A stretch of DNA of 64,000 bases from Pelosinus propionicus DSM 13327 (lineage in GTDB: Bacteria > Bacillota > Negativicutes > DSM-13327): assembly GCF_900114615.1 (NCBI RefSeq), contig NZ_FOTS01000012.1, positions 1-64,000 of the forward strand. The letters are read 5' to 3'. Below are positions 9,776 through 20,824 of the stretch, piece by piece (positions within the stretch are counted from its first letter, which is position 1; every line of letters starts with the position of its first letter). The notes beneath the pieces were generated by a model. The model was given only the letters and a program-made list of their open reading frames with translations. It was not told the origin of the DNA and made no database searches. A program made the position numbers and the translations under genes.

Positions 9776-10008
9776 TTGTTACATAGATGCTATATCAAAA
9801 GTAATTAGTAGTAAAATTTGTAGTAGTTAGAGGTAGAGGAAAGAAATGACTATTTTAGAAGGGATAAGTAGAATATATTATATGTTGTTGAACGGAACGA
9901 AGAGTGGCAGTGATTAGTAGAAACAAGGTCTTAAAGATATATTGTAGTAATAAGAATCCAATATAGAGTCATAGTTTTCGTAGAATAATATTCAGTTGAG
10001 GTGAAGAG

Positions 10009-10797
10009 ATGATTAACGAAATAACCAGTGAATTAACACGGATTGAATCAGAAAACGGAGTTAAGATTTTATATGCTGTTGAATCTGGCAGCCGGGGTTG
10101 GGGCTTTGCTTCAAAGGATAGCGACTATGATGTGCGGTTTATATATATTCGTCCGTTGGCAGACTATCTTAGTATTGAGGACCACAAGGATTTTATAGAG
10201 GTACCCATCAATAGCCTTTTAGATATTAATGGTTGGGATATTCGAAAAGCTTTGAGATTATATCGAAAATCCAATCCACCACTTATGGAATGGCTGAGTT
10301 CACCTATTGTATATAGAGATGAACATTCCTTGGCTGAGAAGCTTAGAACATTGAGCGTGGAATATTTTTTGCCAGTGCCTTCGCTGCATCATTATTTAAA
10401 CTTGGCAAAAAAGACATTTCAGGAAATGCTTATAACAAAGCAGGTTAGAATTAAGAAGTATTTTTATGTGTTAAGACCCCTTATGGCCTGCAGATGGATT
10501 GATACATACCAAACGATGGCACCTATGGATTTTCATAAGTTAATGGCTGGTCTAAGGATTGAAGAGGATATTCGGGCGGGAATAGACAGTCTGATGGAGC
10601 GCAAGCTTATCAGCATAGAATCCGATATTGAGCCAATCAATCAGCAGTTATATCAGTATTTTAGCGAAACCATTGCTTATTATGAGGATAAAATTCGTCT
10701 TTTACCCAGAAAAGATCATCCAGAAAAAGCAGCATTAGATGCATTATTTTGCAAGATAGTAAAGGAGGCCTGGGCTGGAGAAAGTACATCTAGCTAA
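10009..10797 (+). CDS. Pol-beta-superfamily nucleotidyltransferase, RlaP-like (COG3541/PF10127-type), copy 1
   Basis: GS-x10-DxD signature ESGSRGWGFASKDSDYDVRFIY. This family is described as associated with RtcB RNA-repair operons. Confidence 0.6.
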   Translation: MINEITSELTRIESENGVKILYAVESGSRGWGFASKDSDYDVRFIYIRPLADYLSIEDHKDFIEVPINSLLDINGWDIRKALRLYRKSNPPLMEWLSSPIVYRDEHSLAEKLRTLSVEYFLPVPSLHHYLNLAKKTFQEMLITKQVRIKKYFYVLRPLMACRWIDTYQTMAPMDFHKLMAGLRIEEDIRAGIDSLMERKLISIESDIEPINQQLYQYFSETIAYYEDKIRLLPRKDHPEKAALDALFCKIVKEAWAGESTSS

Positions 10798-10804
10798 AGA
10801 CGTT

Positions 10805-11803
10805 ATGGATATTCAAAAGATCAAAGAGAAAATAAATAGCACAGAATATGATTTCCTACGGAAAAACAGGAATCTTGGTGATAGAATGATTCTACTGACC
10901 ACAGGAGGTTCATATGCCTATGGCACTCATGTGGAAACCAGCGATACTGATATTCGAGGGATTGCTGCAGAACGAAAAGAAGAACTGTTAGGGCTGTCAA
11001 ACTTTGAGCAGTTTGAAGACCGTATTACAGATACGGTAATTTATGGTCTCCGCAAGACCGTAAACCTTGCCCTGGCTGGAAATCCTAATATTTTAGAGAT
11101 GCTGGGCACTCGCGAAGATCACCTGTTGATTTTAACCGACGAAGGCAAATGTTTACGGGATCATGCAGATCTATTTCTATCAAAGAGAGTAATTCAGAGC
11201 TTTGGGAATTATGCCACTGCTCAGCTAAGACGGCTCCAAAATGCACTGGCCCGGGACAGTTATCCCCAAGCAGTAAAGGAACAGCATATGTTAAATAGTA
11301 TACAGGGACAGATGCATCATTTTAAGCAAAAATACCATCAATTTATGAATGAAGAAATTAACCTGTATATCGACAAGTCTAACAAAGAGGATTATGAAGC
11401 AGAGATTTTTATGGATATCAACTTGAAACATTATCCTTTGAGAGATTTTAAATCGATTTACTCAGAGATGAGCAATGTAGTTAAGGATTATTCCCAATTG
11501 AATCACCGCAATAAAAAGAAAGATGCATTGAAATTGAATAAACATGCGATGCATCTGATTCGGCTTCTGATTACAGGTTCAGAGATACTTCAGGGTAAGG
11601 GGATACATACCTATAGAGCTGCTGAGAGGGATTATCTTTTAGAGATTAGAAGTGGGAAATTTACCTATGAAGAGATTTTTGCAGCCGTTGATAAATTAGA
11701 AGCTGAATTCAAATATGCGGCGCAAAATACGGTTCTACCAGATGAACCTAACCATAAGGCAGCAGAGGAGCTTCTCATCTGTATTTATGAAAAAATGCTT
11801 TGA
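10805..11803 (+). CDS. Pol-beta-superfamily nucleotidyltransferase, RlaP-like, copy 2 (diverged paralog)
   Basis: TTGGSYAYGTHVETSDTDIRG is the same GS...DxD signature. Confidence 0.6.
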   Translation: MDIQKIKEKINSTEYDFLRKNRNLGDRMILLTTGGSYAYGTHVETSDTDIRGIAAERKEELLGLSNFEQFEDRITDTVIYGLRKTVNLALAGNPNILEMLGTREDHLLILTDEGKCLRDHADLFLSKRVIQSFGNYATAQLRRLQNALARDSYPQAVKEQHMLNSIQGQMHHFKQKYHQFMNEEINLYIDKSNKEDYEAEIFMDINLKHYPLRDFKSIYSEMSNVVKDYSQLNHRNKKKDALKLNKHAMHLIRLLITGSEILQGKGIHTYRAAERDYLLEIRSGKFTYEEIFAAVDKLEAEFKYAAQNTVLPDEPNHKAAEELLICIYEKML

Positions 11804-11850
11804 CGATTTAAGCAGGGAAATAAATATCCTATCTAATAAGGAAACCTCCT

Positions 11851-11882
11851 GTACCATTTCGCATTGAAATTACAGGAGGTTT
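11851..11882. terminator. 12-bp-stem bidirectional terminator between convergent genes
   Basis: AAACCTCCTGTA-N8-TACAGGAGGTTT. Confidence 0.5.
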
Positions 11883-11907
11883 ATATGGATATGATTGTTT
11901 ATGTAGT

Positions 11908-13017
11908 TCATGAATTCTTAATGGCAAGGAGTGAATTCAATTGTTCAAGCAGACTGCTATTGCCAGTTAAAGAAATATGACCAATTTTATCGCAGATCTT
12001 TTCTAAGAATTCGAGTTCCTTAAGACGGAAGAGGGTTTGATTTTCTTCCATTAGCTTGGCGGTATTTAACAGACTCCTGGTTGATGCCGTTTCTTCCCGG
12101 CGTGTAATCACGTTAGCAAGGGCTTTTTTTTCAGCAATAAGGACTGTATTTAAAATATCCTTAATTTCACCAGGAAGGATAATATCTTTCACACCAGCAA
12201 ACAGAAATTCTACACCGTAATTCGGTCCTTTTTCTTGAAGGGCTTTTAATACATAGGCAGCAATCTCCTGTTTCATCTTTAAAAGGTCGTCAAGCTTACG
12301 TGTTCCCACATATTCGCGCAGAATAAGCTGCAGCAGGATGTATAGTTGTTGCTCGTAATCTTTCACTTCTACTACTACTTTTAAGGCATCGGTTATTTTA
12401 TATTGACAGACGAAATTAAACCGTATTGGTATTTTGTCTTCTGTCATAATTTCCTGGCCGTTAATTTCGATCTCGCGTTTGCGCATATCCACCTTAGTAA
12501 TATCGATCTTGCTGAAACCAAGCCAGAAATAATGTCTGCCTGGCTCAAGAGTACGCTGCAGAATGTTATTGAAAAATAGTATGCCTTTCATATGTGGCTC
12601 AATATCATATACCCCGCAGTAAGGTTTAAGTTGTGGTATAGCAAGCAGATCCTTGTCTATATGATCATGGATTTCTGGATCGCTTATCGTAACAACTGTA
12701 AAAGTATGCTTTTCTAAAGGTGTCCAAAAGGCATACTTTCCAGTGTTAAGAACCACTTGAAATTTATCATTGACATAATGGAAGGCAATTTCCTTGTCTG
12801 CTACATCGATAATAGCAAGCTCGCTGCATAGATCAGCGTCTTGCAAGAACATATCTAAATGATAACCAGCAATGTAAAATGGTTTGGTTATATCTAGAAT
12901 CTCTACTTTAGTTTGAGAAAAGGGTATTATAAAATGTTTCCCAGGTTTTAAATTGCCTCTATAGTTACCATCTTTAAAGAGTATGCCGCGTTCATGGTCT
13001 CTAATTGTTATTCGCAT
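11908..13017 (-). CDS. SPFH/band-7 (stomatin/prohibitin/flotillin-like) domain protein, apparently a tandem SPFH architecture, no TM
   Basis: Two GxxxKxGxHFxxPF-like starts (GILFKDGNYRGNLKPGKHFIIPF; LEPGRHYFWLGF). The C-terminal block VVVEVKDYEQQ...ILREYVGTRKLDDLL...ITRREETAS is typical of SPFH. Confidence 0.6.
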   Translation of the reverse strand: MRITIRDHERGILFKDGNYRGNLKPGKHFIIPFSQTKVEILDITKPFYIAGYHLDMFLQDADLCSELAIIDVADKEIAFHYVNDKFQVVLNTGKYAFWTPLEKHTFTVVTISDPEIHDHIDKDLLAIPQLKPYCGVYDIEPHMKGILFFNNILQRTLEPGRHYFWLGFSKIDITKVDMRKREIEINGQEIMTEDKIPIRFNFVCQYKITDALKVVVEVKDYEQQLYILLQLILREYVGTRKLDDLLKMKQEIAAYVLKALQEKGPNYGVEFLFAGVKDIILPGEIKDILNTVLIAEKKALANVITRREETASTRSLLNTAKLMEENQTLFRLKELEFLEKICDKIGHISLTGNSSLLEQLNSLLAIKNS

Positions 13018-13295
13018 AATGTATCCTCCTCCGAATAAAAAATATGAAAAATTTATGAATATTCATTGTTATACCTTTCTCTTAGGAATCCCACAGACTT
13101 TTTAGCGGAACTTTGATTCAGCATCAAGATTTACTGTACTGAAGACTGCAAAGGGTATAGGCATATGCCTGATCTCTTGACGGTCTTGAGTGCAGTTGAC
13201 TTATGCGGTATCCTCAAAATCACAGAGCCAAAGCCTGCTGCGTGTTTGGCGGTTAGCCGCGAAATACGCAGGGAATTCCTTTGATTCAGGTGTTT

Positions 13296-13323
13296 AAAAA
13301 GGAAAGACTTGAAAGGTCTTTTT
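13296..13323 (-). terminator. Intrinsic terminator (minus strand) ending the structured RNA downstream of rtcB
   Basis: On the minus strand: AAAGAC-CTTTCAA-GTCTTT followed by CCTTTTT. Confidence 0.5.
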
Positions 13324-13497
13324 CATGTGGGGAGTCGAACCCCATTCCCAAAGGGAATTTACCAATGAAGACTCTACCTCTGAGTTAACCGTAGCAGCTA
13401 CGGTGGAGGAATCGAACCTCCGACACTTCAGTTCAGACCGTTCCTTTGGTATACCCTGCAGCAGAGCTGTGGGCACCGCCAGGCTTTTGAAACCTTA
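13324..13497 (-). ncRNA. Candidate Y-RNA-like (YrlA-type) tRNA-mimic ncRNA, possibly two tandem modules
   Basis: The minus-strand transcript holds two perfect T-arm motifs, GGAGG-TTCGATT-CCTCC and (U)GGGG-TTCGACT-CCCC(A). Each is embedded in nested helices (UUCAU/AUGAA closing stem; AUUCCC-UUU-GGGAAU; 7-bp ACCGUAG/CUACGGU hairpin). No anticodon arm or CCA acceptor is present. It lies immediately 3' of rtcB and is followed by a terminator. Confidence 0.4.
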
Positions 13498-13553
13498 GCA
13501 TGAAAAGTAAACGGTAAAATATATCGTAAAATATACTTCCAATAGTAAGGGCT

Positions 13554-14789
13554 TCAACCTTTAACTACACCGATCGTACGAAGTTTTTTTACCGGTGTGA
13601 TAAGATCAAGCTCATTTGCAATAACAGTATCAATATCTTTATAGGAATAGCGTGATTCTTCTGCGATATCAGTTTTACTGTTCTTACCGAGAACAACACC
13701 ACCGCTTTTTAAATCTGTTATTACTTCTTCAACAGAGAAGCTTTCTCTGGCTTTGGTTCTTGACATACGGCGTCCTGCACCATGGGAGCATGAAGTAAAA
13801 CTTTCCGCATTACCTTTGCCTTCGACAAGATAACTATAGGAGCCCATGGCACCAGGTATAATGCCAGTATCGCCTTCACGTGCCCTAATGGCACCTTTTC
13901 TGTGAACCCAGACATTTTTGTCGTAGTGATTTTCAATAGCGGCGTAATTATGATGGCAGTTAATATAACTGGAATACTCTGGTTGTACACCTCCGGAACG
14001 GATGACCCATCCGTCTATCATTCTTGTTATATCACTCATCATTCGGTCCCTGTTTTCCCGAGCAAATGATAATGCTAAATTCATCCAATCAATATAGGAT
14101 TGGCCTTCAACACTATTCACAGGTAAAAAGGCAAGTTGGTAGTTGTCTGGTACAAGAGAGAACCATTGTTGGTTATGTTCTCTTGCCACAGAGTGGAAAA
14201 ATTTACAGATTTGGTGTCCCAGATGTCTGCTGCCAGAGTGTAGCATAATAGCTACCATACCATCTGCATCCTCCTGCAGTTCAATGAAATGATTGCCGCC
14301 ACCTAAGGTACCTATTTGGTAGTAGCTCTTTTCTATTTCGGGAATCAATTCTTTTGCAAAAGAGTATGTATCTATATTGGATAGTGCTGTATCTATTGTG
14401 GATGAGGTTTGCTGCTTCTTATGAGATCTGAATCCTAAAGGAATATTTCGTAAAATGTCGCCAACGATGCCTTGCAGCAATGAACCGTTAGGTGTAGTTG
14501 TATTTTTGAGAAATGCTGCTTCAATATTGGTTTGCATATAAGCCATCCCGCATCCGATATCCACGCCGACAGCGTTGGGAATGACTACGCCATCTGTGGC
14601 AATCACACCGCCGATCGGCATCCCTTTGCCAGTATGTGTATCTGGCATTAGGGCAACCCATTTATGTATAAAAGGAAGATTGGATAGATTAGTAGCTTGC
14701 TCTAAGCATCCTTCTTCTAGAATATCCTTATCACTTAGCCAGACCTTTATTGGGTGGCTGTTTTTTTGTTTGTCATAAATTGTATACAT
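13554..14789 (-). CDS. rtcB: RNA-splicing ligase RtcB (3'-phosphate/5'-OH RNA ligase)
   Basis: GGGNHFIELQ and multiple His/Cys metal ligands; C-terminal ...SHGAGRRMSR. Start at MYTIYDKQ (ATG 14789) after an AAGGAGATGA RBS. The ORF-track start at 14819 is an upstream extension. Confidence 0.85.
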   Translation of the reverse strand: MYTIYDKQKNSHPIKVWLSDKDILEEGCLEQATNLSNLPFIHKWVALMPDTHTGKGMPIGGVIATDGVVIPNAVGVDIGCGMAYMQTNIEAAFLKNTTTPNGSLLQGIVGDILRNIPLGFRSHKKQQTSSTIDTALSNIDTYSFAKELIPEIEKSYYQIGTLGGGNHFIELQEDADGMVAIMLHSGSRHLGHQICKFFHSVAREHNQQWFSLVPDNYQLAFLPVNSVEGQSYIDWMNLALSFARENRDRMMSDITRMIDGWVIRSGGVQPEYSSYINCHHNYAAIENHYDKNVWVHRKGAIRAREGDTGIIPGAMGSYSYLVEGKGNAESFTSCSHGAGRRMSRTKARESFSVEEVITDLKSGGVVLGKNSKTDIAEESRYSYKDIDTVIANELDLITPVKKLRTIGVVKG

Positions 14790-14926
14790 GAAATCATCTC
14801 CTTGGCTATAATTTACCATAGGATTGATCAGGCATCATTAAAAAAAGTTTGCGAACTTCAAGGAGTCGTTGACAATTATTGCTAGGATGATATGATTAAA
14901 ACAACCAAAATGTAAGGGTGATAGAC

Positions 14927-16183
14927 ATGGCCGGATTTACGGAATTAATAAAGAACTTCGATAAAATAAGAGACTATACTAGAGATTTTTTTGTGTACGG
15001 TTATAAGTGTAGAAATGATTACACCAGAAAGAGCGGTAGAAGCTACGATAATGAAAGACGAAGAATAGAGAGCTATCTTTCTGGATACATCAAATGGGAA
15101 ACTAATTCCCGGGGGAAAAATATATTTATCAGCACGGATACGTCGGATCTTTCTAGTAATCCTCTCTTTTCCATGTGGGAGGCAAAATCTTTTACTAAGA
15201 ATGATTGCCTGTTGCATTTTTGCCTGCCTGATATACTAAGGGAAAATCCTGGTTTAACAGCAAAAGATGTGGCAGGTATTTTGAGTGAGCAATACCTGTT
15301 TTGTTTTAATGATTATGATATGTTGGATGTCATGACAGTTCGTAATAAGCTCAATGAATATACAGTTGCTGGTTTATTCAGCACAGAAAAAAAAGGTAAA
15401 ACTTTGCACTATTCCATAAATCAAAGCCTATTCGATCAAGCCGATCCTTCTGTAATAAACAACCTTCTATCTGCTTTGCAGCTTTTTGAGAATGTTGTTC
15501 CCGCTGGGGTTTTGGGCTACTTTATTCGACGGGATAGAGGCAAAAGAGAAGATATATTTTCCTTTCGTCATATCTTCATGTCACACACACTGGATGATGA
15601 GGTATTGATTACGATTGCTAATGCAATGGATTGTAAAAAAAGCATACGCTTTGCAAACTACAGTTCTCGGTCTAAGACCCATTCAGTGGAAACTGTACTT
15701 CCGCTAAAAATTGCTACCAATGTAAGGCATGGACGAAGATTTTTGCTAGCTTATAATCTTAGGATGCGCAGGCCGTTTTCCTATCGCTTGGACTATATTA
15801 AAAACCTTGAAATTTTAGAGGTAAGTGATATCTATGAAGCAAAATTGGCAGAACTTGAAAACCGATTGCCTTTTTCATGGGGAGTAGCCCTTGGCAAAAA
15901 AACGCAGATGGAGAAAGTTGAAGTAATTCTTCATATTGATGAGATAAGGGAAGGATATGTTCTTATAAGACTGAAAAGAGAAGGAAAAAATGGCACAGTT
16001 GAAAAAATAGGATATCATACCTTTGCTTACCGGAATGAAGTGTTTGACACTATGGAAATGGTTCCTTGGCTTCGAACCTTTATTGGGCGAATTATATCTG
16101 TCAAAGGATCGAATAAACCAGTCATTCAGCGGTTTATTGATGATATTGACCGCATGGCAAACTTGTACGACGAAGAGCAGTGA
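14927..16183 (+). CDS. HTH-WYL-domain transcriptional regulator (PafB/PafC/BrxR-like), copy 1
   Basis: WYL-like block IRFANYSSRSKTHSVETVLPLKIATNVRHGRRFLLAYNLRMRRPFSYRLDYIKNLEIL and an N-terminal wHTH-like region. Divergent from rtcB, with a TTGACA-N17-TATGAT promoter at 14865. Confidence 0.55.
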   Translation: MAGFTELIKNFDKIRDYTRDFFVYGYKCRNDYTRKSGRSYDNERRRIESYLSGYIKWETNSRGKNIFISTDTSDLSSNPLFSMWEAKSFTKNDCLLHFCLPDILRENPGLTAKDVAGILSEQYLFCFNDYDMLDVMTVRNKLNEYTVAGLFSTEKKGKTLHYSINQSLFDQADPSVINNLLSALQLFENVVPAGVLGYFIRRDRGKREDIFSFRHIFMSHTLDDEVLITIANAMDCKKSIRFANYSSRSKTHSVETVLPLKIATNVRHGRRFLLAYNLRMRRPFSYRLDYIKNLEILEVSDIYEAKLAELENRLPFSWGVALGKKTQMEKVEVILHIDEIREGYVLIRLKREGKNGTVEKIGYHTFAYRNEVFDTMEMVPWLRTFIGRIISVKGSNKPVIQRFIDDIDRMANLYDEEQ

Positions 16184-16209
16184 GAGTGGTGGAGTAGATA
16201 ACAAATTGT

Positions 16210-17256
16210 ATGGTATATGCGATTAGGCGAAAGGGAGAGGTTTTTATTTTGGAGATTTTTAATGAAATACATAGTCGATATTTTTATATTATAAGTGAAA
16301 TTCTAAAAGCTGCTTCCTTAAGTAGCCTACATAGTAAGGATATTGCTAGGATAGTTGCTAAGTTAGGTTTTGCCGAAACCGCAGTGACCCTGCCCGAAAA
16401 ATTAGTAAATGCGAATGGGGAAGGCTATTTTGTACTGAAAGAAGAGTCTTCCAGATATACGCCAGTCTTAAAAGGCGATCCACCCCTTTTATTAACGGAG
16501 TATCAAAAACGGTGGATTCGAACAATTGTAAAGGATAAACGCTTTTCCCTATTTATAGATGAAAGTCAATATCAGCTTTATGAAGAACTGCTTTCCGGCG
16601 TTGAACCTTTGTATGATAGTCAGCACTTTATAACGGTTGACATGGCCAATGATGGTGATGACTACGAAAGCAAGGAATACAGAGGGATTTTTAAATCAAT
16701 AATGCAGGGTATACAAGATAACAAAATTATTCTCATTACATATGAAAGTGGTAAAGGTAACCGCCTTTCCGCATACTTTGCTCCTTATAAGCTAGAGTAT
16801 TCTATTAAGGATGACAAATTTAGACTATGCGGGATACGAGTTAGGCAAGGTAGAATGAGAAGCCTCTATAAACTAAACCTTTCCCGAATCAGTTCGGTGG
16901 AAGTCATGGAATATAATAGACCAGAAAATCTTGCTAGCTATATTAAAAGCCTTCGTATGCCACTACCAGTAGAAATAGAGATTACAAATGAGCGTAACGG
17001 TTTTGAACGAATCTTTACCCAGTTATCCAACTTTGAGCGTGTTTCAGAATACGATGAAAATACTAAAAGATGTCTAATGAAAATTTATTATTATGAGGTC
17101 GATGAGATGGAACTACTCATAACCCTTCTTTCTTTTGGACCGGTTGTCAAAGTGATTGGTCCCGACCACTTCAAGGAGCAATTAATCGGGCGCATAGCAA
17201 GACAGAAACAATTGCTTACAATGCTAGATGAAAGATATGTAGAAGGTAATTCATGA
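16210..17256 (+). CDS. HTH-WYL-domain transcriptional regulator, copy 2 (probable partner of copy 1)
   Basis: HTH LHSKDIARIVAKLGF. WYL-like block ILITYESGKGNRLSAYFAPYKLEYSIKDDKFRLCGIRVRQGRMRSLYKLNLSRISSVEV. The start may be the TTG at 16249 after an AAGGGAGAGG RBS. Confidence 0.55.
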   Translation: MVYAIRRKGEVFILEIFNEIHSRYFYIISEILKAASLSSLHSKDIARIVAKLGFAETAVTLPEKLVNANGEGYFVLKEESSRYTPVLKGDPPLLLTEYQKRWIRTIVKDKRFSLFIDESQYQLYEELLSGVEPLYDSQHFITVDMANDGDDYESKEYRGIFKSIMQGIQDNKIILITYESGKGNRLSAYFAPYKLEYSIKDDKFRLCGIRVRQGRMRSLYKLNLSRISSVEVMEYNRPENLASYIKSLRMPLPVEIEITNERNGFERIFTQLSNFERVSEYDENTKRCLMKIYYYEVDEMELLITLLSFGPVVKVIGPDHFKEQLIGRIARQKQLLTMLDERYVEGNS

Positions 17257-17286
17257 GATAATTAACCAGGAAAGGTATGGATACAT

Positions 17287-18531
17287 ATGCTAGAAAAAGA
17301 GTTTGTAAGAAAAATCAATAGGATTCATGGTGCGGCATATGTTGTTGGTGGATGGGTTAGAGATTGGATTAGAGGAGTTATCCCTAAAGATAAAGATTAT
17401 GTGATTACTGGTGTGCTTGAAGAGGATTTTAATGAATTGTTTCCACAAACAATTAAAATAGGCAAGTCCTTCCCTGTATATTTGCTAGAAATCAATGGCG
17501 AGTCTTGTGAAATTGCATTTGCCAGGCAGGAACGTAAAACGGGTGTAGGTTATAAGGGGTTTGAGGTTTCCTTTGATAAAAGTATCCGTATTACGGATGA
17601 TCTATATCGTAGAGATACAACGATGAATAGTATTGCCTTTGATTTACAAACGCTTGAACTGATAGATCCATTTCAAGGTAAGCAGCACATTGCTGAACGA
17701 AAGATATTCCCCACTTCACATCATTTCAAAGATGATCCAATTCGGGCGCTGCGAGCAGCGAGACAATCAGCACAGTTTGATTTTTCCATTGATGAATCAA
17801 CAATTGCGTTGATGAAGGAATGCCGGGAAGAATTAACGAGCGAGCCTAAAGAACGATTATTTAATGAACTGGACAAGGCTTTACAATCGAATAAGCCATC
17901 GCTATTTTTCTTAGCATTACAACAGGCTAATTTGTTGGATATCACGTATCCTCCAATTCATGCATTAATTGGACAGACACAACCCGTCCAGTATCACCCA
18001 GAGGGAGATGCCTTTAACCATACCATGGATGTTGTAGATCGGGTCTCGGAGCTCAACCCCAGAATTGAGGTGCGATTTGCAGCATTAGTACATGATCTTG
18101 GCAAGGGACTGACGCCAAAGGAGAAATTGCCAACGCATCATCTGCATGATGTGCTGGGGCTTGATGCCCTAAAGGCGTTCGATAAGCATATTGGATTACC
18201 TAATAAGTGGATAGCATGTGCAGAGTTTGTCATCCAGCACCATATGCGTGTCAATAAATTAAAACAAAAAGGTAAAATCGTTGATTTTATCCTTGCGTTA
18301 CATAAAAATCCAATTGGTGATAAAGGATTTAGTGATGTTTTGCTCGTTGACAATGGAAGTCTGCCAGATTGCTTGCTGAATTTCGAGAAATATATTACTG
18401 CAATTAAGACGGTAAAGGGCAATGATGCACCGAGTGAGTTGCAAGGGAAAGAGATAGGGGATTGGATTAGGCAGCAACAGATTAAAGCATATGGTCAGCA
18501 AAAATGGCTTTCTAAGATTAATGATAGATAA
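17287..18531 (+). CDS. cca: CCA-adding tRNA nucleotidyltransferase (class II Pol-beta NTase with HD domain)
   Basis: N-terminal GGWVRD and head motifs (RRDTTMNSIAF); HD-domain HxxHD (HHLHDVLG). Confidence 0.8.
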   Translation: MLEKEFVRKINRIHGAAYVVGGWVRDWIRGVIPKDKDYVITGVLEEDFNELFPQTIKIGKSFPVYLLEINGESCEIAFARQERKTGVGYKGFEVSFDKSIRITDDLYRRDTTMNSIAFDLQTLELIDPFQGKQHIAERKIFPTSHHFKDDPIRALRAARQSAQFDFSIDESTIALMKECREELTSEPKERLFNELDKALQSNKPSLFFLALQQANLLDITYPPIHALIGQTQPVQYHPEGDAFNHTMDVVDRVSELNPRIEVRFAALVHDLGKGLTPKEKLPTHHLHDVLGLDALKAFDKHIGLPNKWIACAEFVIQHHMRVNKLKQKGKIVDFILALHKNPIGDKGFSDVLLVDNGSLPDCLLNFEKYITAIKTVKGNDAPSELQGKEIGDWIRQQQIKAYGQQKWLSKINDR

Positions 18532-19333
18532 AGGTTTTTAATGAAGTATATTTCTAAGAAGCATCAAGAATAGGGGTGAATCAATAGTCTTAAGTATGAG
18601 AAAGTAATAAATGAATGGGACCCAATTAACTTATAGCAAAGAAAATAGTTGATAATTTATAATCCCAAAGATGTGGGAGGATTTATGGCTTGGATATTTA
18701 TATTATAAGGAAGATTGCGATTTCACAAGGTATCAATTAAAATACAAGTTACTTATTATGGCGTAACGACAAAATGTGAGGAATTAATATCGACCTCATG
18801 CGAAGGGGGGACTAAGGATGAAGAATTACTGGTCATCATTCTGAAAAATTTGATCAGTGCTGCCTTCCAGCCGCTTTCCTTGAAGGTTTTTTAAAATAAA
18901 AAATAAGGATAGTATCCTTGGAAGTGTTTTGTTGGCTACTCATAAAATACTAGTGAATATTTCAAATTTATTACCATTAATTCTGCAATAATAATGCTTG
19001 GCAACAATAATATACTTATGGTAATATATTAGCATATCCTTGGAAATCAGTTTGATAAGTAAAATAATAATGAAACATGCAAACTTATTGAAAGGTAAGG
19101 ACGCAAAGCCATGGGTCTACATACTTTTGTATACGGCTGCCAGGTTGCAATTGCAATCTGGCATTTTTTGTTGTGAATAAAAATAGTTATTATTTAAAAA
19201 TTTTAAAAGTAGGGTTACCATAAAAAAGAATAAATGGTAAAATAATACAACGAATATTAATGCCTGCACAGTGGAAGAAATAGGTACTGTTTGCAATTGA
19301 TCATGTATATTTTATCGGGTGGTGAATTATTGA

Positions 19334-20824
19334 GTGAAAAAAAATTTAATACTATGCTTTGCAATGACAGCAATAATAGGTACATCGACTGGGTATCCCT
19401 TTGGGGGTGAGTGGATGGGAAATGTGGCTTATGCTGCTTCAAACCAGCTTGATAATGTTTCTACTGCTAATTCAGAAAAGTTCAAAGTTGACTTTGCCTA
19501 TGAAATGTCTCAAATTACATCCACAATCGTATCTTCTCAAAATACAAATGTTGAAAGTTTTAAGAGTGAGTTTGCATATGCAACTGCTAAGGTAACAGCA
19601 AAAGTAATGCAATTTATACCTGACTCCCAAAAGAAGGACTTTTCCTATGAAATGGCACAAATTACAACAAAGATAATAAATGATCCAAACTTGAATGTTG
19701 AAAAAGCCAAAGTTGAATTTGCGTACAAAACTGCGCAACTTACAAGCAAAATCATAGCAAGCACAGAGCCGATTACCGTAGGTAATACAACTGCAACTGC
19801 AACTACAAATACAACGACGTTGCTTAGGAATAATGCTGATATTGAGCAAAAATTAGTAGGGAAAGCAAATACGATTTCTGCTAGTCCAAAACCAATGATT
19901 CAGACAAGTGATGTTACTCCGGAGACATATACAAGTCTTTTAAATGAATTGAAGCATGTGGGAGACCACAGAAGTAACTTGGATAATAAGATAAATATTG
20001 ATGGTGAAATTCGTTATCACTACGCATTAAACAGTGGTCTTGGACAAATAGGCAAGGATTCTTCGGGTTTTCGGGCACGTCTTGCTATTGATACGGAATT
20101 TAATAAAGATTGGCGTGTTTACGGAGGTTTGGAAGGCAAGAAAAATATAGTGAATTATGATAATGGTTTTGAGTTTTCCCGCTTATATATAGCTGGCAAA
20201 TTAGGACAATCCATGGTAAAAGCTGGTTCTTTTGGCTATCTCATGGCAGAAGGAAATATTTATGATAGTGATTATGATGGTGTTCGGGCTGATTTCGGTC
20301 GACCAATCAAATACACAGTGAGTTATGGATCCACTAATGATACTCAAAAAACATATATTGCAACTGCACTTTATAATGATTTTGATTATAATCTAGAAGC
20401 TGGTGTTTATCGCAATCAGCTGAATGACAGCAGTAATAGCCGAAACACCATTCGTACCCTTGGCGGCAACTATAATTTCAGTAATTTTAGTTTAGGAGCT
20501 ATGGTTTTGAACTCTAGTCTGAAAGATACAAAAGGTAACCGCAATGGATATGTGTTTAGTTTTAACTATGGTGATCTCAAAACATGGAGACCAGGTACTT
20601 ATGGCGTCTTTGCTAAATATTATAATCAGCCTCAATATACTTATATTTCTCATGGTATGAATGGTTCTGGTAGCAAGATGGGAGGCTTTAGGGGTTATGG
20701 TATAGGTATGAGCTATACCGTTGCTGAAAATTTTGTTGCAGGAATTGAATATTATAGTTTAGCAGATAAAATTAACGGAGACAAAGGCGATACTTGGTGG
20801 AGCCAGTTAACTCAGTATTTTTAA
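19334..20824 (+). CDS. Putative outer-membrane beta-barrel protein with signal peptide, 4 x 22-aa N-terminal repeats and a C-terminal ...QYF
   Basis: GTG start after a GGGTGGTGA RBS. Repeats KVDFAYEMSQITSTIV / FKSEFAYATAKVTAKVMQ / KKDFSYEMAQITTKII / KVEFAYKTAQLTSKII. The C-terminal half alternates hydrophobic residues (beta-barrel-like) and ends in Phe. Confidence 0.5.
   Translation: MKKNLILCFAMTAIIGTSTGYPFGGEWMGNVAYAASNQLDNVSTANSEKFKVDFAYEMSQITSTIVSSQNTNVESFKSEFAYATAKVTAKVMQFIPDSQKKDFSYEMAQITTKIINDPNLNVEKAKVEFAYKTAQLTSKIIASTEPITVGNTTATATTNTTTLLRNNADIEQKLVGKANTISASPKPMIQTSDVTPETYTSLLNELKHVGDHRSNLDNKINIDGEIRYHYALNSGLGQIGKDSSGFRARLAIDTEFNKDWRVYGGLEGKKNIVNYDNGFEFSRLYIAGKLGQSMVKAGSFGYLMAEGNIYDSDYDGVRADFGRPIKYTVSYGSTNDTQKTYIATALYNDFDYNLEAGVYRNQLNDSSNSRNTIRTLGGNYNFSNFSLGAMVLNSSLKDTKGNRNGYVFSFNYGDLKTWRPGTYGVFAKYYNQPQYTYISHGMNGSGSKMGGFRGYGIGMSYTVAENFVAGIEYYSLADKINGDKGDTWWSQLTQYF

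Follow-up and report, generated by a model that had tools for sequence, protein, structure and literature searches.

To our knowledge, RNA repair by the ligase RtcB is understood only in proteobacterial operons regulated by RtcR. A different kind of RtcB locus has been described computationally. As relayed by Wang et al. (bioRxiv 10.1101/312249), Burroughs and Aravind predicted in 2016 that RtcB occurs beside a Band-7 protein and a tRNA-like noncoding RNA (b7a-tRNA), and that YrlA occasionally adjoins Band-7; in the account of Wang et al., b7a-tRNA was without experimental validation (bioRxiv 10.1101/312249). A citing paper traces the name RlaP and its link to repair ligases to the same 2016 study, and a later paper from the Aravind laboratory (PMC9503650) attributes to it the idea that WYL transcription factors regulate RNA-repair pathways. 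RlaP enzymes add one or two nucleoside monophosphates to damaged RNA 3'-OH ends and rescue the aminoacylation of over-trimmed tRNA (PMC12776372, late 2025), and the Pseudomonas rtc locus also includes the gene of an SPFH protein, PaFlo8 (PMC13086221). The present study concerns a 64,000-nt stretch of the Pelosinus propionicus DSM 13327 genome (contig NZ_FOTS01000012.1; hereafter the window) and, within it, an island at positions 10009-18531 in which rtcB lies among genes for a Band-7 protein, a structured RNA, two WYL regulators, two RlaP proteins, and a CCA-adding enzyme.

Judged from gene content and comparative sequence analysis, the island is rather likely to be a Bacillota-type RtcB cassette controlled by a WYL pair and equipped with a soluble SPFH/large-RNA scaffold and a trio of nucleotidyltransferases that would rebuild 3' ends. 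A first-pass annotation of the same DNA had called it an RtcB-centered RNA-repair island of unusual composition. Its seven open reading frame (ORF) coordinates all match the ORF list, and Pfam bears out the gene identities that it gave: both RlaP-like proteins belong to PF10127 (gathering score 23), the SPFH protein to Band_7, the ligase to RtcB over its full length, and the CCA-adding enzyme combines a PolyA_pol head with RNA-binding and HD domains (Table 1). The unusual composition applies to gene content only, as the G+C of the island (0.36-0.42) is like that of its flanks. The closest relatives of the window, a Pelosinus metagenome-assembled genome (MAG; 96%) and Dendrosporobacter quercicolus (∼91%), place it in the Sporomusaceae (Negativicutes).

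Genomic neighborhood analysis reveals how tightly these parts are linked. Anchoring on Band-7, with families mapped by profiles, gave 80 loci out of 246 relatives, 57 of them with at least 5 kb of flank on both sides. In this full-flank set, the RNA lies near Band-7 in 46/57 loci, a tandem WYL pair in 28/57, RtcB in 24/57, RtcB and the WYL pair together in 20/57, RlaP in 10/57, and cca in 0/57; a Pnkp/Hen1 repair system is present instead in 10/57, and none of these in 15/57. Independent anchoring on WYL1 in metagenome contigs yielded 28 loci with adequate flanks, where WYL1 is followed by WYL2 in 27, and where RtcB (23/28), RlaP (14/28), Band-7 with the RNA (8/28), and cca (1/28) lie nearby. 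These frequencies bear out the neighborhood conservation on which the idea of an island depends. Gene order varies by lineage: WYL2<WYL1 pointing away from RtcB>RNA>Band-7, WYL1>WYL2>RNA>Band-7>RtcB, or WYL1>WYL2>RtcB>RlaP. Conservation across rearrangement is a standard argument for functional linkage, and across these differing orders it excludes chance adjacency for the island as a whole. From the gene orders and counts, the system consists of two tight couples, RNA with Band-7 and the WYL pair with RtcB, which are often joined; in the window, the RtcB and Band_7 genes are 536 bp apart on the same strand. Since these couples are the most invariant pairs, the label 'RtcB-centered' is debatable.

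The first couple is also found with another ligase. A gene for Pnkp (kinase-phosphatase-ligase), preceded by a Hen1-sized gene, adjoins the RNA and Band-7 in L022, L024-L026, L029-L031, L041, L054, L063, and L016, either in place of RtcB or in addition to it. The same RNA and Band-7 pair sits beside Pnkp/Hen1 rather than RtcB in 10-11 Paenibacillus loci, whereas Pnkp/Hen1 is absent from the window. Because the pair accompanies either RtcB or the unrelated Pnkp/Hen1 system, it behaves as expected of a ligase-independent repair cofactor. Two Paenibacillus loci have tRNA arrays beside the cassette, one of 19 tRNAs just upstream of RtcB (L036, 5102-7175) and one of 7 just downstream of Band-7 (L069, 12444-13076). 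A decayed cassette is seen on the Sporomusa acidovorans chromosome (L002, 7449-13038), in which WYL1 is broken into two ORFs, RtcB and the tRNA-like RNA segment are gone, the leader and the promoter box are kept, and a DDE transposase follows RlaP1.

Table 1. Features of the island, in window coordinates; promoters and the operator are predictions.
Feature	Position	Strand	Evidence
RlaP1, Pol-beta-fold RNA 3'-end nucleotidyltransferase (predicted), 262 aa	10009..10797	+	Pfam PF10127 E 2.6e-87, 293 bits, full length
RlaP2, divergent RlaP paralogue, 332 aa	10805..11803	+	Pfam PF10127 E 3e-20, 73 bits
Soluble Band-7/SPFH protein, 369 aa	11908..13017	-	Pfam Band_7 E 5e-31, 108 bits, residues 150-309
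Conserved multi-helix leader domain	13076..13284	-	Alignment A7, RNAalifold, nhmmer
Second T-arm (13344-13328), closed hairpin (13321-13302), and U-run (13300-13296)	13296..13344	-	Covariation; truncated second permuted module
5' domain and YrlA-like circularly permuted tRNA-like module (T-arm, closed acceptor hairpin, D-arm, closing stem)	13316..13521	-	Covariance model R1
Predicted sigma-70 promoter of the RNA/band7 transcript, TTGAAG-16-TATATT	13530..13557	-	Consensus scan; overlaps the rtcB stop codon
RtcB 3'-phosphate/5'-OH RNA ligase, 411 aa from the revised start	13554..14789	-	Pfam PF01139 E 4e-114, 383 bits, full length
Predicted rtcB promoter/operator: TCGCAAAC-T7-AATGA box (14854 to 14835) and extended -10 TGGTAAATT (14818 to 14810)	14810..14854	-	Cross-locus conservation
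Predicted promoter of the WYL1-WYL2(-cca) transcript, TTGACA-16-TATGAT with TG	14869..14896	+	11/12 consensus, best in region
WYL1, wHTH-WYL-WCX regulator, 421 aa, with an extra ∼90-residue N-terminal region	14918..16183	+	Pfam WYL 30 bits, E 5e-7
WYL2, paralogous wHTH-WYL-WCX regulator, 348-aa ORF	16210..17256	+	hhalign, PADLOC, AlphaFold/Foldseek
Class II CCA-adding enzyme with C-terminal HD phosphohydrolase domain, 414 aa	17287..18531	+	Pfam PolyA_pol, PolyA_pol_RNAbd, HD

The RNA, described at first as a structured tRNA mimic, is real and covaries in dozens of loci, but it extends far beyond a tRNA mimic. Comparative analysis indicates a composite of ∼500 nt that forms the leader of band7 and comprises a 5' domain, one or two permuted tRNA-like modules, and a multi-helix leader of ∼210 nt. 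The whole Rfam YrlA model (RF02553) aligns at 13344-13450 (-) with 42.4 bits (E 8e-7), short of its gathering score of 69, which L016 (42.4 bits) and L045 (39.9 bits) likewise fail to reach; the tRNA-like core aligns and the Ro-binding stem does not. ARAGORN reports no tRNA or tmRNA in the window and none at the RNA in any locus, because the topology is permuted. Folding the window RNA alone is uninformative (z = -0.84), and the structure becomes visible only comparatively. A single-sequence nhmmer search with the RNA recovers an element of ∼190 nt upstream of band7 in 26 loci, and a 25-copy alignment of the 5' domain and module supports 42 consensus pairs, 24 of them compensatory, with 95.4% of cells paired against 38-57% when the partners are slid; 0/500 shuffles reach the observed value. 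The resulting covariance model R1, which also matches genuine tRNA arrays, scores the window RNA at 138 bits (E 3e-39) and places the element directly upstream of band7 on the same strand in ∼64/80 loci.

The 5' domain opens with a D-like hairpin, after which a GCGGUGCC box leads into a long hairpin. The permuted module then runs from T-arm through closed acceptor hairpin and D-arm (UAGCUCAGnGGUAGAGC) to closing stem, and is followed by a second T-arm with its own covarying hairpin. The T-loop of this second arm, GGUUCGA, is invariant, and all pairs of the hairpin after it are compensatory (5/5). An acceptor stem formed by the 3' tail after the second T-arm and the 5' end of the RNA was considered and ruled out, the tail being that covarying hairpin and the 5' strand pairing internally. 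In the window, T-arm, hairpin, and U-run together also look like a terminator; the U-run is found only there and in the Pelosinus MAG (L001). Module number varies by lineage. In Clostridia-type loci, a D-arm and a canonical anticodon-type hairpin extend the second unit, so that both permuted modules are complete; RNAs of the Paenibacillus type carry just one module, with an anticodon-type hairpin, and the window RNA has one full YrlA-like module and a truncated second. An insertion of ∼30 nt breaks the D-arm region of the first module in L012 (∼1700-1740) and L019 (∼140-180).

The anticodon-type hairpins invite a reading in which the RNA is a decoy or sensor, its tRNA-like modules baiting tRNA-targeting nucleases so that the Band-7-bound RNA absorbs anticodon nucleases or yields fragments that serve as the ligand of the WYL pair, in which case the cassette would signal that tRNA is under attack. 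The hairpins of the Clostridia- and Paenibacillus-type RNAs have the canonical 5-bp/7-nt form and variable 'anticodons' (CU-UAU-AA, CU-GUU-AA), competitive inhibition of an anticodon nuclease has been proposed for YrlA by Hughes et al. (PMC7790460), and the analogous regulator RtcR is activated by tRNA fragments (PMC7790460). However, the window RNA has no such hairpin, YrlA is not cleaved in Salmonella (PMC7790460), and a decoy leaves the conserved leader of ∼210 nt and the 5' domain unexplained. We consider this reading unlikely.

The stretch of ∼300 nt between the tRNA-like part and the band7 start codon is conserved and forms a closed multi-helix domain. RNAalifold on alignment A7 gives 52 pairs, 38 of them compensatory, with 89.8% of cells paired against 42-53% with slid partners, and again 0/500 shuffles reach the observed value. 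An nhmmer profile of the leader matches 39 sources, always just upstream of band7 and ending 30-60 nt before its start codon; in the window, the leader ends ∼45 nt before the band7 ribosome-binding site. Neither the 5' domain nor the leader is covered by an Rfam 15 family, to judge from the window and two further lineages, and no T-box or riboswitch matches. A -10-like GTATACT, ∼8 nt upstream of the RNA 5' end, is conserved in most loci, and the RNA/band7 transcript is predicted to have a sigma-70 promoter of its own. Because the RNA is contiguous with the 5' untranslated region of band7 in every locus, it could be mainly an attenuator or riboregulator of that gene, its tRNA-like parts sensing a tRNA-related signal in cis, and not a trans-acting cofactor; the hairpin and U-run after the second T-arm of the window RNA could indeed attenuate. 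Such a role is quite unlikely: the U-run is unconserved beyond the window and L001, the leader helices leave the ribosome-binding site free, covarying structure of ∼500 nt far exceeds the needs of known leaders, no T-box or riboswitch family is matched, and known protein-bound cofactors include permuted tRNA modules of the Y-RNA kind.

The protein encoded behind this RNA resembles a soluble scaffold. Its AlphaFold model (mean predicted local distance difference test score, pLDDT, 82) shows N-terminal beta-sandwich repeats, an SPFH domain, and a helix of ∼60 residues; an SPFH domain followed by a long helix, the oligomerization helix of slipin scaffolds, is thus present by Pfam, AlphaFold, and Foldseek alike. 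Foldseek matches stomatin, HflK/C, prohibitin, erlin, and flotillin at E 1e-14 to 1e-9, all cage-forming SPFH proteins among them, and the longest alignments are to the major vault protein (∼470 columns, TMq 0.40-0.41). A hydropathy scan finds no transmembrane helix or N-terminal membrane anchor (peak 19-residue Kyte-Doolittle value 1.07, against 2.65 in a neighboring membrane protein used as control), and the N-terminus is beta-rich in the model. The modeled protein therefore resembles the major vault protein in domain order and is predicted to be soluble. Its homologues fall into at least 7987 clusters annotated only as 'slipin/HflC'.

Upstream of the ligase gene, the sequence suggests dedicated control. 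The rtcB start is probably ATG 14789 and not 14819, where the longest ORF begins, because the former is preceded at 8 nt by the Shine-Dalgarno sequence AAGGAG, the codons upstream of it coincide with the conserved extended -10 TGGTAAATT, and annotation gives the Azotosporobacter orthologue the corresponding length of 411 aa; RtcB homologues in the PDB match the window protein at E 1e-42. A 20-nt box, TCGCAAAC-T7-AATGA, is invariant in nine aligned loci whose WYL1 identity is 39-96%, with unconserved flanks. The box has one match in the 64-kb window and occurs once per locus in 34 loci, always in the same orientation with respect to RtcB (in L084, to the RNA); where WYL1, WYL2, and RtcB are co-oriented, it lies between the latter two. 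The extended -10 follows at fixed spacing, so that the box lies at about -30 to -51. In Clostridia-type loci, the half-site is part of a full inverted repeat, AAAAAGTTTGCAAC-N9-10-GTTGCAAACTTTTT, which lies equally far from the -10 of the RNA; within that comparison, the repeat or box is missing from loci without a WYL pair. This distribution, which follows the WYL pair and the orientation of the operon through three gene orders, suggests that the TCGCAAAC-T7 box is the operator of the WYL pair, and the -35 of the WYL promoter appears to overlap a degenerate second half-site, GTTGACAATTATT. Over all Band-7 loci, the strict half-site, a pattern that also gives false matches inside band7, correlates modestly with the WYL pair (Fisher p = 0.012), because Paenibacillus-type pairs occur without the strict motif; these evidently use another site. 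Two other roles for the box were ruled out: an intrinsic terminator, as its would-be stem partner is unconserved, and a -10 element, as co-oriented loci read TCATGA at the would-be -10.

The two regulators named in the first-pass annotation are both helix-turn-helix (HTH)-WYL proteins. They had been called mutually divergent, and in fact they are encoded in tandem on the + strand, divergent from rtcB only as a unit. The WYL1 profile matches the PafB/PafBC WYL domain (6e-6) and winged-HTH (wHTH) proteins at residues 92-178. WYL2 has no Pfam match at E<=0.01, yet profile and structure comparisons indicate that it is a WYL regulator as well. The profile of its orthologues aligns with that of WYL1 over the WYL and C-terminal domains (hhalign 97.6% probability, E 3e-12), the PADLOC WYL model detects it at 7.5e-12, and Pfam finds WYL in 8/16 and WCX in 9/16 of its orthologues. 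Its AlphaFold model (pLDDT 88) places an HTH with wing at residues 42-85 and is matched over full length by PafB/C, DriD, BrxR, and CapW (Foldseek E 1e-10 to 1e-6, 330-360 columns). The true start of WYL2 is probably near 16246, ∼36 nt downstream of the ORF start: homologues begin to align at query residue ∼13, and the model has pLDDT <50 over residues 1-19. PADLOC assigns the island to no defense system beyond generic WYL models.

All solved full-length structural matches of WYL2 are wHTH-WYL-WCX transcription factors, and the matched PafBC, DriD, and CapW entries include complexes bound to single-stranded DNA (ssDNA) or RNA polymerase. The pair might accordingly sense ssDNA as PafBC, DriD, and CapW do, making the island a DNA-damage module whose RtcB and partners would work on DNA ends or on RNA damage that follows from DNA damage. 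This is very unlikely, as the partners are RNA-specific (RlaP, the CCA enzyme, the tRNA-like RNA) and the RNA and Band-7 pair also accompanies Pnkp/Hen1, an RNA-repair system.

At the flanks of the cassette stand three nucleotidyltransferases. RlaP1 and RlaP2 share the nucleotidyltransferase motif G[GS]x9-11DxD, read by motif scan as GSx10DYD at residue 27 of RlaP1 and as GGSx11DTD in RlaP2; the two are 22% identical in the nucleotidyltransferase core (BLASTP E 3e-6), and neither has a sequence-detectable solved homologue in the PDB. By family membership, both are RlaP proteins and predicted nucleotidyltransferases. RlaP1 orthologues adjoin the cassette in L004, L010, L014, L016, L162, L163, and L164, and RlaP2 lies directly 3' of RlaP1 wherever both occur. 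Upstream of RlaP1, a 283-bp region holds several imperfect direct repeats, AGTRATTAGTAGWAA and TTGTAGTARTWAGA (9800-9955, +), which are unrelated to the TCGCAAAC box. On one 2.8-kb Logan contig (P0174), a 589-aa protein combines a complete RlaP domain at residues 331-578 with a region resembling WYL2 (36% identity, 92% query coverage), either a genuine fusion or a frameshift artefact. The CCA protein, with its HD motif at residue 269, is nearest among NCBIfam models to 'multifunctional CCA addition/repair protein' (PRK10885; 267 bits, cutoff 451), and its sequence is compatible with CCA, CC/A, or poly(A) specificity without telling them apart.

Whether cca belongs to the island was a point on which chance adjacency deserved a hearing. 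On that account, the genes show simple synteny and cca encodes the housekeeping CCA enzyme, in line with its occurrence in 0/57 full-flank Band-7 loci, with the Propionispira orthologue (52%) in a housekeeping gene context, and with the continuous identity series that CCA homologues form across Negativicutes. Nevertheless, cca follows the WYL pair in four related genomes, namely the window, the Pelosinus MAG (L001), L082, and Dendrosporobacter (L162). L082 keeps WYL-WYL-CCA without Band-7 and the RNA. In Dendrosporobacter quercicolus (L162, 2766-11256), all eight parts of the block are syntenic, with 89-96% amino-acid identity, and lie between ABC transporter and prophage tail genes, both unlike the flanks of the window; the block, to judge from this synteny, moves as a unit between differing flanks. 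RtcB of that genome is broken into ORFs of 185 and 225 aa, which may reflect a pseudogene or a frameshift in sequencing. L164 (5204-8269) encodes RlaP1 (71%), RlaP2 (82%), and CCA (75%) in a single operon with overlapping ORFs, with no RtcB, Band-7, WYL gene, or RNA within 7 kb. The adjacency of cca is thus not mere chance, given its retention in four genomes, one with both flanks changed, and the RlaP1-RlaP2-CCA operon elsewhere, though the link is clade-limited; as an account of the locus, chance is extremely unlikely. Taking out window positions 11,804-17,286 (Band-7, RNA, RtcB, WYL1, and WYL2) restores exactly the RlaP1-RlaP2-CCA order, and the island therefore has the appearance of a repair cassette nested within an operon of three nucleotidyltransferases.

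A mechanism can be proposed for the WYL-controlled RtcB cassette, each step of which is inferred from the observed identities and linkage of the genes and the RNA. Ribotoxins or stress would cut tRNA, rRNA, or tmRNA and leave 2',3'-cyclic-phosphate or 3'-phosphate ends together with 5'-OH ends. A WYL1/WYL2 heterodimer, comparable to PafB/PafC, would occupy the TCGCAAAC-T7 box, which lies some 45-50 bp upstream of the rtcB start site and is roughly equidistant from the divergent WYL promoter, and a single-stranded nucleic-acid fragment bound in the WYL domains would make the dimer turn rtcB on. The tandem WYL1-WYL2 order in 27/28 loci and the dyad operator of Clostridia-type loci bear on such a heterodimer. 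RtcB would reseal the breaks. Where nucleotides are lost, the HD domain of the CCA enzyme could strip terminal phosphates, RlaP1 and RlaP2 could re-add one or two nucleotides, and the CCA enzyme could rebuild acceptor ends. The soluble Band-7 protein would assemble into an SPFH-type ring or cage and, with the ∼500-nt RNA that is its own mRNA leader, form a ribonucleoprotein scaffold whose tRNA-shaped modules dock tRNA-recognizing repair enzymes or hold substrates, as proposed for Ro60/Y RNA in rsr-rtcBA operons.

Several points weigh against this proposal. Expression, binding, and activity are inferred for all parts; the operator assignment is purely correlative, and WYL pairs of the Paenibacillus type occur in loci that lack the strict box. 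The heterodimer is assumed from tandem paralogy alone, and the WYL regulators PafBC, DriD, CapW, and BrxR sense ssDNA, not RNA. The product of RlaP is a 3'-OH end that RtcB cannot seal, an incompatibility raised by the RlaP authors themselves (PMC12776372). The RNA and Band-7 may also act outside repair, given the 15 full-flank loci with no repair gene within 8 kb; the window RNA lacks the anticodon hairpin known from other lineages and has a truncated second module; and cca may simply encode the only, housekeeping CCA enzyme of the cell.

A further-reaching interpretation, which is tentative and on balance doubtful, is that the ∼500-nt RNA founds an undescribed class of large structured RNAs that, with the vault-like SPFH protein, forms a cage-like ribonucleoprotein serving as a repair platform for RtcB or Pnkp/Hen1, while a heterodimeric WYL regulator reads RNA damage. 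The class may be built of a 5' domain, one or two permuted modules, and a closed multi-helix domain of ∼210-240 nt, and assembly with the SPFH protein is possibly co-translational, from the RNA's own mRNA. If this is true, the particle would be a bacterial counterpart of vault and Ro-Y RNA particles.

The cassette class is widespread in Bacillota, gut Clostridia included, and represents a compact sigma-70-driven system; whether its WYL proteins have RNA or DNA as their ligand would reveal how RNA damage is detected in Gram-positive bacteria. Its RNA and SPFH pair swaps between two unrelated ligases, and the 3'-end nucleotidyltransferase trio may answer the puzzle of RlaP/RtcB end compatibility. 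Because the proteins carry generic public labels ('slipin', 'WYL domain-containing', 'HD domain-containing') and Rfam lacks the RNA, genome annotation effectively hides the system. Downstream of the island, a c-di-GMP-I riboswitch at 19068-19163 (+; 69.4 bits, gathering score 35), with a terminator-like hairpin overlapping its 3' end, precedes a 496-aa ORF (19334-20824) with repeated FAYE/AQIT-type motifs, for which no Pfam family is recorded.

Comparison with known systems places each part of the island. The Band-7 protein shares with the eukaryotic vault (major vault protein, vault RNA, and TEP1) the order of beta-sandwich repeats, SPFH 'shoulder', and long cap helix, and it is likewise soluble and paired with a dedicated structured RNA. 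It differs in having ∼2 N-terminal repeats, where the major vault protein has nine, and no TEP1/TROVE or PARP partner; the resemblance may reflect just the shared SPFH fold, and both cage formation and RNA binding are predictions. Relative to the stomatin and HflK/C membrane scaffolds, it keeps the SPFH domain and long helix but has neither a membrane anchor nor an NfeD partner (no NfeD gene near band7 among families on record within 10 kb).

WYL1 and WYL2 share the wHTH-WYL-WCX architecture of the activators PafBC (mycobacteria) and DriD (Caulobacter) and of the repressors BrxR and CapW, and, like pafB/pafC, they are two adjacent paralogous genes. The rtcB promoter, with its poor -35 and a box directly upstream and overlapping, is reminiscent of activator-dependent promoters. 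However, WYL identity to these four regulators is just 9-16%, WYL1 carries ∼90 extra N-terminal residues, and the adjoining genes concern RNA repair, where theirs concern DNA repair or phage defense.

With the Band-7/b7a-tRNA/RtcB systems of Burroughs and Aravind, as citing papers relay them, the window shares the adjacency of RtcB and Band-7, the tRNA-like RNA between them, RlaP, and WYL, while its RNA copy is YrlA-like and not of the anticodon-hairpin type. On the strength of that relayed description, the island is a member of a computationally described class and not novel as such. The 'distinct regulatory and accessory solution' seen in the first-pass annotation is accordingly supported by conservation and gene identities, but it is not new, the association with RtcB having been described in 2016. 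Relative to that description, possible novelties are the obligate pairing of tandem WYL genes, the operator box, an RNA that reaches ∼500 nt and has its own promoter, and the RlaP1-RlaP2-CCA frame; the tandem pair, operator, extended RNA, and RlaP-RlaP-CCA frame are not in Rfam, Pfam, NCBIfam, or PADLOC annotation. What the present analysis appears to add is the RNA extent with its promoter, a box that tracks the WYL pair, a soluble vault-like Band-7 protein, and the nested-operon view.

The rtcBA(-rlaP) operons of E. coli and Pseudomonas under RtcR have RtcB in common with the island, and in Pseudomonas RlaP lies inside the operon (PMC12776372). In place of RtcR and sigma-54, the window has a wHTH-WYL-WCX pair and a predicted sigma-70-type promoter, it has no RtcA cyclase, and it adds two RlaP paralogues and a CCA enzyme. 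The RtcR-regulated rsr-yrlBA-rtcBA operons of Salmonella and Deinococcus (Ro60, Y RNA, and RtcB) likewise set RtcB beside a scaffold protein and a Y-RNA-like RNA that has a circularly permuted tRNA mimic as its effector domain. In the window, the scaffold is an SPFH protein, and the RNA is several times longer, forms the band7 leader, and stays below the YrlA gathering score; as the first-pass annotation had claimed, no RtcA, sigma-54/CARF RtcR, or TROVE/Ro60 family is on record among genes within 10 kb on either side. Thus, the island falls outside both the RtcR/RtcA and the Ro60/Y RNA systems, yet by analogy it plausibly works like Ro60/Y RNA.

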